DNA of 64,000 nucleotides, taken from the IMG/VR virus record IMGVR_UViG_3300011678_000001, positions 128,001 through 192,000 of that record. One strand, 5' to 3'. The stretch comes from a virus (taxonomy: Duplodnaviria; Caudoviricetes). Position 1 is the stretch's first letter; each line of letters starts with the position of its first letter. Below, piece after piece: positions 3,414 through 51,831 of this stretch. The translations under genes and the position numbers were made by a program. The notes under the pieces are model-generated. The model saw only the letters and a list, made by a program, of their open reading frames with translations, ran no database searches and had not been told where the DNA came from.

Positions 3414-3716
3414 CTAGCGAAAGACGCTGTCACTGAGTTCAGATAACGGCAGGTAACCCGGCTTGATGTCATCCACAGTGATCAGCAACCCATAACCCGT
3501 CATCAAGCGCGACACCGGATCAGGACCGATTTCGTTGATCAGCAATATCGTGACGGCATCGTGCTTCAGGCGGTACGCCTCATTCACTTTGAATCGCGAA
3601 TAGTCTTGCTTGACCATCTCACGAGCTTTCTTCAAGTTAACCTTGAGACGTGTAGTGGGGGTGAAGTGCATCGCCGAGAGGCCATCTAACTCGTCGTCGG
3701 TTATATCGTCGGCCAT
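3414..3716 (-). CDS. Hypothetical protein
   Basis: ORF in operon, AAGGAA RBS. Confidence 0.6.
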   Translation of the reverse strand: MADDITDDELDGLSAMHFTPTTRLKVNLKKAREMVKQDYSRFKVNEAYRLKHDAVTILLINEIGPDPVSRLMTGYGLLITVDDIKPGYLPLSELSDSVFR

Positions 3717-4114
3717 GGAATATTTCCTTTGTCAAGGTGGTAGAGCGCCCACCACAGGTAGAAGAAGATAGCAGGGTAGTTCAGGCCACAATCAACCATG
3801 TGCTGCCACAGGGGTTTGTGGGTGTACTGCAATTTGTTCTGGCTGAGTTTGAGCAAGCCATTGACCTGATCACGCGGGATCTTACGCCAGCTCTGGTACA
3901 TCCAGAAGTAAAACCGTCCGGCGTTCCAGAAGGGAATGCGACCGACCCGGTATGTCCAGGTTTGTCCGGCGGTGTGAAACTCACCGGTCACTTGTGGGTA
4001 GCGGGTGCTGTGGACAATGTACGCAATGAGGACAGTGCCGATGAATGAAGCGACACTGATTAGAAAGGGGTCAAACATTTTAATTACGCCTGAAAAAGGG
4101 TGGTAGGGATTCAT
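3701..4114 (-). CDS. Hypothetical membrane protein
   Basis: Hydrophobic N-terminal segment FLISVASFIGTVLIAYIV. Confidence 0.55.
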   Translation of the reverse strand: MNPYHPFSGVIKMFDPFLISVASFIGTVLIAYIVHSTRYPQVTGEFHTAGQTWTYRVGRIPFWNAGRFYFWMYQSWRKIPRDQVNGLLKLSQNKLQYTHKPLWQHMVDCGLNYPAIFFYLWWALYHLDKGNIPWPTI

Positions 4115-4127
4115 AGAATCCCTATCC

Positions 4128-4141
4128 GGTGTAATTATTTA
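4128..4141 (-). promoter_or_regulatory. Candidate phage RNAP promoter (TAAATAATTACACC)
   Basis: Identical 14-mer at 49800-49813; resembles the phiKZ TAC-ending promoter consensus; intergenic and upstream of a minus-strand operon. Confidence 0.5.
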
Positions 4142-4142
4142 A

Positions 4143-4415
4143 TCAGTCGTCGAGTCTGTTTTCTTCCTCTTCGTCTTCATCATGAATGATCTGATCCATC
4201 TCTTGACGGTCGCGCTCGTCCGAGATCTTTTCCATGTAGTAATAGTAGATCTGTTCTTTGGTCATGCCATCGAACGTTCCTGCTTGCGCAAGCTCATCAT
4301 AGTCGTGCTGAGATTCGGGTTCGAACTCATCAACGCTCATGTCGAGTATATCTTTCATGATGCTATTCCTTTTCTGGTCTACATATCCGATCGAGCCAAG
4401 CCCGTCGGAATTCAC
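4143..4415 (-). CDS. Small acidic hypothetical protein
   Basis: Very D/E-rich ORF; true start probably MKDILD. Confidence 0.55.
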   Translation of the reverse strand: MNSDGLGSIGYVDQKRNSIMKDILDMSVDEFEPESQHDYDELAQAGTFDGMTKEQIYYYYMEKISDERDRQEMDQIIHDEDEEEENRLDD

Positions 4416-12032: not shown

Positions 12033-12321
12033 CGCTATCTTCAGATAGGTTCGTTAGGCCTACCCCGCCTCTCAGTAGCAGGCAGCTGCATGTCGCCATG
12101 CAGGCGAGATCATATCACGCTCCACTTCCTGTGGAGCCCTCCCATTTCGAGGTCACTTGACCCCTACTCTACTCACCTTGTTTATCCATCATGGCAAGGT
12201 TTTCGATGATCGTTGAACGTTCCCTTGTACGGGGCTTCGCTGCTGATTGCCTCAGTGAGGGTTCCCAGCAATTAGAGAGGTTATTCAAGATAGCTTACGC
12301 TACCAGGGCGCACTTTACTTT
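12033..12321 (-). mobile_element. Group I self-splicing intron (289 nt, no internal ORF) in thyA
   Basis: 5' exon ends in U (CAG CGU) and intron ends in G. P AAUUGCUGGGAA, Q AAUCAGCAG, R GUUCAACGAUCA, S GAUAUGAUC; P1 GCGU/GUGC. Removal restores YQR-SADVFLG in frame. Confidence 0.93.
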
Positions 12322-13077
12322 ACGCTGGTACAGCTGGCAAGACAAACGACGCTTCGGCACGCCCTGGTCGTCCAAGTACTGATCGATCATCTGACCCAAG
12401 GCTTCGCCCTTGATGTTGTCATCGAGTTCGCACAACCAATTGGAGTACTCGCTATTGTGGCCGTCGTAACCTGGCTGAAGGATCTTCTCACGCTCTTGGC
12501 GTGTCAGCTTGACTGAGTAGAACTGGAACAGGGCATGACACGGCGGCAGGGCCATCTGATCCACCAAGGCAGGGTTCCACGCACTGACGATCAGGCGGCG
12601 ACTGTCTGGGTTCTTCTTCAGCATATCGATCAGGTTGGTAATCTGATCAATGCCTTCGTTACCACGACCCTTACACTTCGGACACGTCCACTCATTGAAG
12701 GAGACGTCGCCGAAGTCTGCATCGTTGCACTTACCCGTTCCACCACAGGTTTCGCACTTAACAGGGGTGGGCCAGCTGCGCCACTGGGCGCCATAGACCG
12801 GACCGAGTTCGCCGTTCTCATCAGCCCATTCGTCCCAAATCCGAACACCGTTCTCTTTCAGGTAACGAATGTTGGTGTCACCCTGCAGGAACCACAGCAG
12901 TTCGTGGATGATCGACTTCAGATGACACTTCTTGGTGGTCACGAGCGGGAATTGTCCTCCGCTCAGGTCAAACCGCATCTGATAACCAAAGACGCTGTAC
13001 GTTCCCGTGCCAGTTCTGTCTTCCTTGAATACACCATTGCTTCTAACGTGCCGCATCAAATCTAAATACTGCTTCAT
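12322..13077 (-). CDS. thyA: Thymidylate synthase, exon 1
   Basis: [45 protein letters not shown]. Confidence 0.95.
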
Positions 13078-47445: not shown

Positions 47446-47468
47446 GTCTTAAAGCCCCTTATACTGCG

Positions 47469-47880
47469 TTCCGTGAAGTGTGATCGTTACCGATCCCTAG
47501 TGTTAGCAAGGCATTGTTGTTATCGCATACTGTAGTCGTACGCTGTCTTTTATAACTCCCGCGCATACACGCCCGCTGCCTACAAAAGAGACAGCGGGCG
47601 TACAGAGGCGGTCCGGTAACTGTTCTACCGTAGTCACATGCCGCGTCTGACCCGGAAGCCAGTCGTACGACAGCCCATCTGGGGACACCAGCGCTACGCA
47701 GAGGATGGGCCTCTCTACGGCGGTTGACTGAGCGTGCACTCTCAGCCGTGTGTTTAGATTCCATAGGCCGGTGAAGGGCTAATAAATTAGTCCTACCCTT
47801 ACTTGTCAGACAGAGGTTTCTCAGGCCGCACGTCTGCTTTCTCTTCTTGGGCCTCGCCGTCTGAGTAACGGCTCCCGGAA
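47469..47880 (-). ncRNA. Unclassified large structured RNA (~415 nt)
   Basis: Closing helix UUCCG-GGAG/CUUC-A-CGGAA; many hairpins including a 16-bp stem (47566-47604) and a GUAA tetraloop hairpin (47482-47495); G-U pairs mostly favour the minus strand. Confidence 0.6.
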
Positions 47881-47888
47881 AACTGATT

Positions 47889-48000
47889 TCTCGATGGCGG
47901 GACTTGAACCCACAACCTCCGCAACAGCACTCCGCCAGCATACCCGAGCTTCGCGGGGCACAACGGACCATACGGTGTTCTAACTTAGAACTACATCGAG
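47889..48000 (-). tRNA. tRNA-Pro-like RNA with anticodon loop replaced by a 47-nt extension (non-decoding tRNA-like element)
   Basis: Acceptor CUCGAUG/CAUCGAG-A73, U8A9, D-stem GUUC/GAAC, anticodon stem CCGUA/UGCGG, variable AGGUU, T-arm GUGGG-UUCAAGU-CCCGC. Confidence 0.75.
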
Positions 48001-48007
48001 AAAGGGG

Positions 48008-49015: not shown

Positions 49016-49042
49016 CGATGGTTTCCTTGGTTACGAATAGGC

Positions 49043-49780
49043 GGGGAGGCCCTGTGGCAGCCCTGTCAGATGCACCGACGGGAAGATGCGACAGGGAACG
49101 GGTTAGATGGACCCTCTACCGGGCCTCCCCTGTTCTGGACGTTGTGGGCGGGAACCGAAACCCGCTCTTCTGCGAAAGAGTCTTCACCGGCATGCGACCG
49201 GCTAGCTTAGGTGCATTGCCCTTGCCTTCTTTAACAGCGTTCATGCGTAAACTACCACAACGAACTGGGTTGGAAACCCTGCAACCACACCAACGGCTGC
49301 GATCTCGCTGCCCACCTATTAGGCTGCACGTAGCTGCCCAGGGACTGGTCGTTGGCTGCAAGGTTTCCAATTGGGAGGAGGGACTGTGCGTCAAGCGGAC
49401 TTGGGGAGGAGTCGTCCCTTCCACGCTGGCTGCTGAAGACCATTGTGAAAACCACTCTTTACACGCAGTCCCTCCAAAGGGATGGAGGGGTTGAGACGCA
49501 GGTGATGGCACCTGGGGGAGGGTTCCATGCCGAGCTGCTGAAGGCTCTGCAAACCACCACCCTAACCTCAACCCCTCCAAAAGGACGGGAGAGCTGCCTG
49601 ACTGGCCGAAGGGGACCAATCCAGCACCAGCCACCGGAAAGCCGTGAAGAAAACCGGGTGGCAACTCTCCCTAAACTGTTTAAGCCAATCGTCAGAACGG
49701 CGGTCACCTCTTCAGCGTACATATCCTGCACACTGCTGACGATCGGAGTGCTTCGAGAGCACCCAATGGTAGGGTGCTCT
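49043..49780 (-). ncRNA. Array of seven tandem, individually closed structured RNA domains plus a 5' hairpin
   Basis: Terminal stems at 49043-49130, 49140-49262, 49270-49370, 49377-49475, 49483-49579, 49587-49671, 49685-49746, with 6-13 nt linkers; G-U wobble pattern indicates the minus strand; no credible CDS. Confidence 0.75.
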
Positions 49781-49799
49781 GTCGCATAGATTACACCTT

Positions 49800-49813
49800 G
49801 GTGTAATTATTTA
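49800..49813 (-). promoter_or_regulatory. Candidate promoter for the RNA array
   Basis: TAAATAATTACACC identical to 4128-4141; followed by TATG at ~49785-49788. Confidence 0.5.
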
Positions 49814-50903: not shown

Positions 50904-51350
50904 CTACTTCTCTCCTAAGCAGGCAATGAATGAGGCTTCAACAAACGGCAACATCGACAGGTAGACGTAGCGAATGTCGTTGTCCCAATCTAAACCGCCG
51001 TTACCACATCCCATGGGCGGGAGGGCAATGGTCTTGAACTTGTCGGGATGGCGGTTAACCAGATTCACCAGCTTGTTAAAGTTGTGGATCACCAAGTCGC
51101 GAGGAGAGGGGTCTCGCCAATCGAGCTTGGTTGGCACTAAGAGGTATTTCACACCGCCGTGCTGATACAGAATGAACTGCGTCGGGTCAAGACCCTGATA
51201 CATCTTCTTGTAGTGCTTGTACAGTCCTGGGATGGTGTCCCGTGCAGTCTTGGCAACGCCGGCCCCCATTGCCCCGCGCATGTTGGTGGTCACGATTTTG
51301 GTGTCAGCCTCAACGCTGAACAGGTCTTGTGCCAGCTGAGTATATGACAT
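50904..51350 (-). CDS. Macrodomain ADP-ribose hydrolase (DarG/TARG1-like)
   Basis: DLF...NMRGAMGAGVAK, PTKLDWRDPS, IALPPMGCGNGGLDW; start MSYTQL at 51350. Confidence 0.85.
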   Translation of the reverse strand: MSYTQLAQDLFSVEADTKIVTTNMRGAMGAGVAKTARDTIPGLYKHYKKMYQGLDPTQFILYQHGGVKYLLVPTKLDWRDPSPRDLVIHNFNKLVNLVNRHPDKFKTIALPPMGCGNGGLDWDNDIRYVYLSMLPFVEASFIACLGEK

Positions 51351-51831
51351 TGTCAATCGCCTTGATAAACTCTGCAACGAACAGGGCGCGCAGACTGTCC
51401 TTAGTGCAAGGGATGCGAATCGTCCAGACAAAGGTCGGGGTACGCTTCTTACCCGGATAGCGGTGACGCACAGACATCGACACCTGTCGAGCCCAGATGG
51501 CCGTCTCAGGGTTTTCCATGAACTCTTCAACCAACTGGACATAGACGTCCGAGAAGGCAGCGAGGCCTGGTTCTGTCACCAAGGCGGCGACATAGAGGAA
51601 TGTCTTATCGGTACCCGGATGACAGCAACAGCAATCGGTGGTGGCAATGCCTGGAATGCTGTTCAGTCGATCGATGATGGGGCGCATGGCCCGATCAAGT
51701 TTGGGGTAACCGGCAGCCACGAACTCCTGGTTAGCTTCGAGCTGGCGCTGGAACAGGAGCGGATCAGAAATGAAATGGGTCGGCACGCAGAAAGGCTCCT
51801 TATGAGAAAGCATATTGAAGTGATTGATCAA
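51310..51831 (-). CDS. Hypothetical protein, TYW3-like N-terminal motif
   Basis: LDRAMRPIIDRLNSIPGIATTDCCCCH resembles TYW3 D..I..L...IN......TTSSC.GR. Confidence 0.5.
   Translation of the reverse strand: MINHFNMLSHKEPFCVPTHFISDPLLFQRQLEANQEFVAAGYPKLDRAMRPIIDRLNSIPGIATTDCCCCHPGTDKTFLYVAALVTEPGLAAFSDVYVQLVEEFMENPETAIWARQVSMSVRHRYPGKKRTPTFVWTIRIPCTKDSLRALFVAEFIKAIDNVIYSAGTRPVQR

Follow-up and report, generated by a model that had tools for sequence, protein, structure and literature searches.

Between two protein-coding genes of a jumbo phage lies a strongly folded non-coding stretch, and the question that it raises is what the units of this array encode: are two neighbouring units, which the initial annotation described as structural paralogues, indeed copies of one RNA module, and if so, what might the module do? 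The stretch of DNA analysed here (64,000 nucleotides; hereafter the window) corresponds to bases 128001-192000 of a 269,790-bp IMG/VR jumbo-phage record that is rated complete. The large genes of this phage match phiKZ-type PHROG families, including the split RNA polymerase beta subunit. Non-coding RNAs are not foreign to such phages: according to a 2026 review of jumbo phages (PMC13282480), phiKZ expresses non-coding RNAs, and the authors 'suggest potential roles' for them in regulation.

Read 5' to 3' on the minus strand, the array consists of two hairpins followed by U1, U2, A, B, U4, U5 and U6, the latter being seven stem-closed units of 62-123 nt (Table 1). Its orientation is that of both flanking genes. 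Inside the array we detected no convincing promoters or terminators, and units A and B carry no flanking signals of their own. Searches of the units against Rfam 15, even at E 10, yielded no family at the gathering threshold, so the RNA module is undescribed there; the best scores are at chance level (mir-629 with 20.7 bits, where 72 are needed, and SNORD35 with 15.6 bits, where 36 are needed).

Table 1. Features of the array and of its two flanking genes, in window coordinates.
Feature	Position	Strand	Remarks
CX5R phosphatase-like protein, 151 aa	49811..50266	minus	upstream of array; 50.7% identical to 'putative protein tyrosine phosphatase' of phage DT01
Non-coding array, 795 nt	49016..49810	minus	between the phosphatase-like and Tad2/DUF2829-like genes; MFE z -9.9 vs shuffles
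U1	49685-49746	minus	array unit
U2	49587-49671	minus	array unit
Unit A, 97 nt	49483..49579	minus	P1 (13 bp), 3x3 internal loop, P2 (9 bp), junction with P3 and P4; orthologue covariation, z -4.2
P3 hairpin of A	49528..49551	minus	8-nt loop CUUCAGCA at 49536-49543, identical in 5 lineages
Tail of A, GGAACCCUCCCCCAGGU, 17 nt	49510..49526	minus	near-invariant; single change in 5 lineages is one inserted C
Unit B, 99 nt	49377..49475	minus	diverged tandem duplicate of A; covariance-model match; this phage only
P3 hairpin of B	49419..49450	minus	stem UUUCAC..UGGU / GCCA..GUGGAA; loop CUUCAGCA at 49431-49438
P4 of B, then CAAGU	49399..49418	minus	GGGA/UCCC, loop CGACUCC; UCCC predicted paired, probability ~0.9
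U4	49270-49370	minus	array unit
U5	49140-49262	minus	array unit
U6	49043-49130	minus	last array unit; abuts ribosome-binding site of Tad2-like gene
DUF2829 (Tad2-like) protein, 141 aa	48590..49015	minus	crAss001_48/'Sequestin' C-terminal domain; downstream of array

The assignment of the downstream gene follows a preprint in which Tad2 is equated with DUF2829 (bioRxiv 10.1101/2023.05.01.538930). Searches of solved structures with both flanking proteins returned no match. Two genes upstream of the array, at 50904-51542 on the minus strand, a macro-domain protein is encoded (Pfam PF01661, E 1.5e-5; PHROG 335, 'phosphatase'), and its presence near the array fits a counter-defence neighbourhood directed at nucleotides or ADP-ribose. 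Elsewhere in the window, at 12086-12331 (minus), we detected a group I catalytic intron (Rfam RF00028, 53 bits, E 1.2e-10).

As judged by ARAGORN, neither the window nor the whole 270-kb genome contains a tRNA gene. In the distant relative DT01 a tRNA-Asn and a tRNA-Asp sit just downstream of the homologous locus; this genome has none. At 47889-48003 (minus) the window holds an RNA that resembles a tRNA in its acceptor stem, D arm (UAGUUCUAAGUUAGAACA) and T arm (GGGUUCAAGUCCC) and has a long hairpin where the anticodon loop would be; after it comes a long region, 47469-47880. A 170-aa ORF that overlaps this RNA (47459-47971) has no match in Pfam or PHROG, and Rfam is blank there at E 1. In relatives, we also observed two units that the window does not have: a 130-nt one (L006:3591-3720, with equivalents in L004, L011 and L015) with a perfect T arm, GUCGGUUCGACUCCGAC, and an acceptor-like stem, and a tRNA look-alike (L014:3483-3553, minus) that scores above the Rfam tRNA threshold (41 bits) and has an 'anticodon' arm of 4 bp with a 3-nt loop. 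ARAGORN called neither of the two.

To place the array among its relatives, we searched 50,697 deposited phage genomes in near and distant mode and found no close DNA relative. The sole relative at the protein level, which is also the sole cultured one, is Pseudomonas phage pPa_SNUABM_DT01 (DT01), with ~50% protein identity; its gap is 258 nt long, lacks unit A and has U6 as the only recognisable unit. Starting from homologues of the phosphatase, we reached metagenomic contigs with identical gene order and a gap of ~800 nt in which no gene is called; three more contigs, from IMG/VR and 92-254 kb long, came from a motif scan. Orthologues of A are present, one in each, in four related lineages of ~250-kb jumbo-phage contigs. 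The array is modular: whole units are gained or lost among the relatives, and another lineage carries a different U4. In one lineage an insertion of ~570 nt replaces U1 (L011:830-1430; L015, reverse strand, ~3700-4270 of the oriented locus) and holds a 172-aa ORF with no match in Pfam. Pattern searches of wider collections added no further member: the exact bipartite pattern has one match in IMG/VR, which lies inside a coding region and is due to chance, and a looser pattern gave six new IMG/VR and more than 80 metagenome matches, none of which passes the covariance model, with the best (L034, 21.7 bits) being unstructured (z -1.5) and located within overlapping ORFs.

The structure of unit A was scored on the five-lineage alignment as 29 pairs: 13 bp in P1, 9 bp in P2 and 7 bp in P3. 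All 29 are kept, with standard pairs in 145 of the 145 pair cells and double compensatory changes at seven pairs, although, the orthologues being a small set (five lineages in two or three deep branches), these covariation counts rest on few independent events. When, as a control, the 3' partners were slid by 1-3 columns, pairing fell to 39-52%. RNAalifold, applied to the same alignment, independently recovers the helices P1-P3 and adds a 3-bp P4 (ACC/GGU) that presents the loop CUCCCCCA. Furthermore, unit A folds far better than shuffled sequences, none of 200 shuffles being as good. Substitutions between lineages are confined to the helices, where they are compensated, or to the internal loop, and P3, its loop and the tail are essentially constant. 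The closing pair of P3 covaries among lineages (A-U vs G-C), and a third P3 stem, GGGC/GCCC, is seen in orthologues next to the GAGC/GCUC of A and the UGGU/GCCA of B. The initial annotation had read a constant loop on changed stems as the mark of a functional recognition element; that the element is under constraint is supported by the orthologues and, as described below, by unit B.

On which strand is the RNA made? For unit A taken alone, folding does not discriminate, the plus strand being equally good (-53.6 vs -52.3 kcal/mol), and the strand call for A rests, therefore, on G-U pairs and context. Read from the opposite strand, four G-U pairs in P1 and P2 (G13-U85, G18-U81, U21-G78 and G23-U76) would turn into A-C mismatches, and their conservation places the RNA on the minus strand, in the sense of the flanking genes. 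A coding reading is excluded, since 1-nt indels separate the lineages within the unit and no gene is called in the gap of the relatives.

Unit B proved to be a second copy of the same module. The boundaries initially annotated for the two units are exact, as their ends coincide with the inverted-repeat arms that close A (49483-49508/49554-49579) and B (49377-49395/49457-49475), and both units carry on the minus strand, in the order originally described, GUGGUUU, CUUCAGCAGC, GCRUGGAA and CUCCCC(C)ARGU. Aligned with each other, they have 63 identical, 26 mismatched and 16 gap columns. Their P3 stems differ by two double changes and one wobble, and the loop CUUCAGCA is predicted to be unpaired in both (probability >0.9). 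The 10-mer CTTCAGCAGC, for which 0.09 occurrences are expected in the window, is found there three times; A and B account for two of these, at equal relative offset. The helix of B comprises 10+4 bp, a loop and then 6 bp, and the unit as a whole forms ~30 base pairs; none of 200 shuffles folds as well (z -4.05).

The initial annotation had also suggested searching the phage genome with a covariance model. A model built from the A orthologues only, with B left out, recovers B at 35.3 bits (E 6e-6), and B is its only other sense-strand match, both in the window and in the whole 270-kb genome. The antisense of A scores 31-37 bits in the same model via its palindromic stems; part of B's score is thus generic helix, the score alone overstates the case, and the paralogy argument is carried by the exact common 10-mer and the matching motif order. 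Sought in all related genomes and arrays, B is absent, each of them having exactly one copy, A. B is followed by UCCCAAU, the spacer that relatives have behind A, and the spacers that precede A and B resemble each other. Taken together with the absence of B from the relatives, the matching spacers indicate that 'spacer plus unit' was duplicated in tandem in the lineage of this phage. The proposed structural paralogy is therefore upheld by the covariation among orthologues, by the covariance-model match to B and by the structure retained in B: a single conserved and folded RNA module is present twice in this phage, as A and as its lineage-specific duplicate B.

How might the module work? The initial annotation proposed translational silencing, in which exposed C-rich tracts (CCUCC/UCCC) would base-pair with the Shine-Dalgarno sequences of host or phage mRNAs and the CUUCAGCA loop would make a second contact. 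C-rich apical loops are indeed present and conserved (CCCUU in U2, CUCCCCCA in A, and CCCGUC in U6, as far as DT01); C accounts for 37% of the hairpin-loop bases of the array as compared to 16% of its other unpaired bases; and with the ribosome-binding consensus of the phage being UAAGGAG, any CUCC could pair in principle. The exposure of the tracts needs qualifying: in A the tract is predicted to be partly unpaired (0.4-0.8), and in B UCCC is predicted to pair with the inserted GGGA, with CUCC sitting in a 7-nt loop. The silencing itself finds no counterpart among the sequences of the phage: with the 707 phage start regions, the A and B tracts form duplexes no better than shuffled tracts do (e.g. 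92 sites at -14 kcal/mol vs 141 for shuffles), and no UGCUGAAG of the whole phage genome has a GGGGAGG-type motif within 60 nt, except on the antisense of the units. Moreover, a CUCC match of 4-5 nt is too short for specificity, and the promoter and terminator that classical sRNAs possess are missing from the units. We consider translational silencing by this route quite unlikely, and this part of the initial annotation finds no support here.

Three further explanations compete with a trans-acting RNA. One is that B is a decaying, functionless copy of A, its common motifs being residual identity. That B is present in this phage only would agree with decay, as would the loss of part of the otherwise invariant tail, which in B reads GGAA, an 8-nt insert and then CUCCUCCCCAAGU. 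The fold says otherwise: after 26 substitutions and 16 gap columns the ~30 base pairs still form, P1 and P3 have diverged by compensatory changes and the loop has stayed the same. When copies of A were given 26 random substitutions in a simulation, 5 of 1000 folded as stably as B, a result which argues that the helices of B are maintained by compensation, with the loop, GGAA and the CUCC-containing loop kept; decay we hold to be quite unlikely. Function at the level of DNA, as a signal for replication, packaging or recombination, is suggested by palindromes that are long and perfect and, in A, fold equally well on both strands. This explanation is most improbable given the conserved G-U pairs, which the complementary strand would turn into A-C mismatches, the greater stability of most units on the minus strand (by 3-14 kcal/mol) and the tRNA-like members of the same array in relatives.

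The remaining explanation, that the array is an intercistronic leader, deserves more weight than these two, and we would still call it unlikely. The main effect of the array could be exerted in cis, on the gene that follows it: its hairpins would control the processing, stability or translation of the Tad2-like mRNA, or shield an untranslated stretch, with A and B serving as interchangeable spacers. The shared orientation of the array with both flanking genes and the lack of signals of its own are as expected of a leader, and so is the position of U6, which abuts the downstream ribosome-binding site and is the only unit kept to DT01. U6 is kept there (L002:4300-4379) via the motifs GUAGAGGG..CUAACCCGUU and CCCGUC, and may be a candidate cis element for the Tad2-like gene; in a U6 alignment (MAFFT and RNAalifold) the 3' halves were misaligned and gave no usable consensus. 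For the array as a whole, cis control is difficult to reconcile with three features. Spacer hairpins need neither an invariant 8-nt loop nor a 17-nt tail while their helices change at no fewer than 12 positions; seven to nine different conserved modules, some of them tRNA-like, exceed what cis control requires; and the way in which close relatives have gained or lost units as a whole points to autonomous cargo.

We also considered specific partners for the constant parts. Pairing of the A/B loop with GCUGGA of U2 was a candidate kissing contact (a 6-bp duplex of -8.3 kcal/mol, reached by 0.3% of shuffles), and it is weakened by RNAalifold, which pairs GCUGGA internally; both sides are constant and thus offer no covariation. 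U2 itself contains a 22-nt segment, CUGGUGCUGGAUUGGUCCCCUU, that is invariant across six sequences, with a covarying closing stem. Pairing of the loop with GCUGAAG of U1 was rejected, as U1 reads GCGGUAA in the L006 lineage with the loop unchanged, and so was internal pairing of CCCUCC with the 5' strand of P1, as the tail has no change to match that of P1 from G4-C94 to A4-U94. Conserved 3' CCA tails on the units were set aside, the bases after P1 differing by lineage (AUCCC vs UCCCA). Hammerhead and other self-cleaving ribozymes were discarded likewise: Rfam gives no match, and CUGAAGA of U1 is not conserved. Finally, mimicry of a host RNA was dismissed, as the 17-nt tail occurs 47 times in 185,579 prokaryote genomes, in unrelated high-GC taxa, where ~70 occurrences are estimated by chance. 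The core pattern has no match in the same genomes, and similarity to any E. coli genome was not found.

With moderate confidence, we favour a polycistronic array of folded modules from which A and B are processed out to act in trans on a partner via their constant loops. Such an array would be a set of stem-closed RNAs in a small clade of phiKZ-like jumbo phages (with an RNA polymerase split into several subunits), transcribed on the minus strand along with the phosphatase-like and Tad2-like genes. The long closing helix of each module would insulate its folding and would probably be the handle for host RNase III; otherwise, RNase E may cut the U-rich spacers, and either way a stable small RNA would be freed. 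A genome-wide search for RNase III, RtcB, Rsr/TROVE and reverse transcriptase genes found none encoded by the phage. The working surface would be the invariant part, namely the P3 hairpin with its loop CUUCAGCA, the adjacent GGAA and the C-rich P4 loop, which, displayed at a three-way junction, may bind a protein or RNA of host or phage, plausibly in host takeover or counter-defence. For B, this reading would have a tandem duplication of 'spacer plus unit' followed by compensated divergence of the helices with the surface kept, and the outcome may be a higher dose or a slightly altered specificity.

A more specific form of trans action is possible, and we put it forward tentatively, as more improbable than not: A, B and the other units with C-rich loops would be decoys or sponges of an early counter-defence operon, their loops capturing a host RNA or RNA-binding factor. 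They would do so either through an anti-Shine-Dalgarno-like surface that titrates G-rich ribosome-binding sites or as bait for a defence nuclease or sensor of the host, and the tandem duplication in this phage would then be an adaptation of dosage or specificity.

Whichever partner applies, the locus provides a concrete conserved RNA module with a defined fold, outside Rfam, in a giant phiKZ-like phage, located among likely counter-defence genes in a phage clade without ordinary tRNAs. The natural duplication reveals which parts are selected (one 8-nt loop, GGAA and a C-rich loop), and this offers a precise experimental handle on the array: two loops, one unit.

How does the module compare with known systems? 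Units A and B themselves are not tRNAs, as the Rfam tRNA model is blank on them at E 10, the P3 loop has 8 nt and the T-loop motif is absent; other units in relatives show part of the cloverleaf that defines a tRNA, with its D and T arms, its acceptor stem of 7 bp and its anticodon loop of 7 nt. An array associated with a retron or reverse transcriptase was sought through the RVT_1 domain, which is absent from the genome. Likeness to type III antitoxin arrays (ToxI/pseudo-ToxI, direct repeats of ~34-36 nt) was rejected, as the units here have 62-123 nt and are mutually different, with only A and B related, at ~60% identity. Y RNAs (YrlA, RF02553; partners of Rsr/Ro60) resemble the module in forming arrays of ~100-nt RNAs with a long 5'/3' stem that contains an internal loop, as well as in a pyrimidine-rich segment and in tRNA-like modules that are adjacent in phages; they differ in that RF02553 has no match here at E 10 and that A and B have no tRNA-like domain. 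A TROVE/Rsr domain was not found in the 270-kb genome, with control genomes being positive.

The C-rich-loop sRNAs of Firmicutes, S. aureus RNAIII and RsaE and B. subtilis RoxS, pair with Shine-Dalgarno sequences; each is an independent gene, equipped with a promoter and a terminator, and has demonstrated mRNA targets. Several hairpins of the array likewise present C-rich (UCCC/CUCC) apical loops, whereas the units are embedded in an operon, show no target enrichment among phage mRNAs and have one tract that is predicted to be paired. The closing helices, in turn, bring to mind the processing helices of RNase III, as in the R sites of phage T7, the stems flanking rRNAs and the 23S intervening sequences. 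Substrates of this type have an end-formed helix of at least ~20 bp with an internal loop, and units A and B both have one; in general, the likeness consists in helices of ~22-25 bp with a small internal loop, formed by the ends of the cargo and repeated along a polycistronic transcript. The differences are that an RNase III gene is missing from this phage, that the cargo is a conserved junction and not an mRNA or rRNA, and that cleavage is here a proposal.

Finally, in phage T4 the small stable RNAs rnaC and rnaD (species 1 and 2), for which we know of no function, are co-transcribed and processed with the tRNA cluster. The present phage differs in having no decoding tRNA, in the absence of a tRNA-like 3' domain from A and B, and in the location of the array, which sits between phosphatase-like and Tad2-like genes and not in a tRNA cluster. 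Compared by description, the two systems are alike in being phage-encoded, protein-free and stably folded RNAs of ~100-140 nt that share one transcription unit with tRNA or tRNA-like genes.
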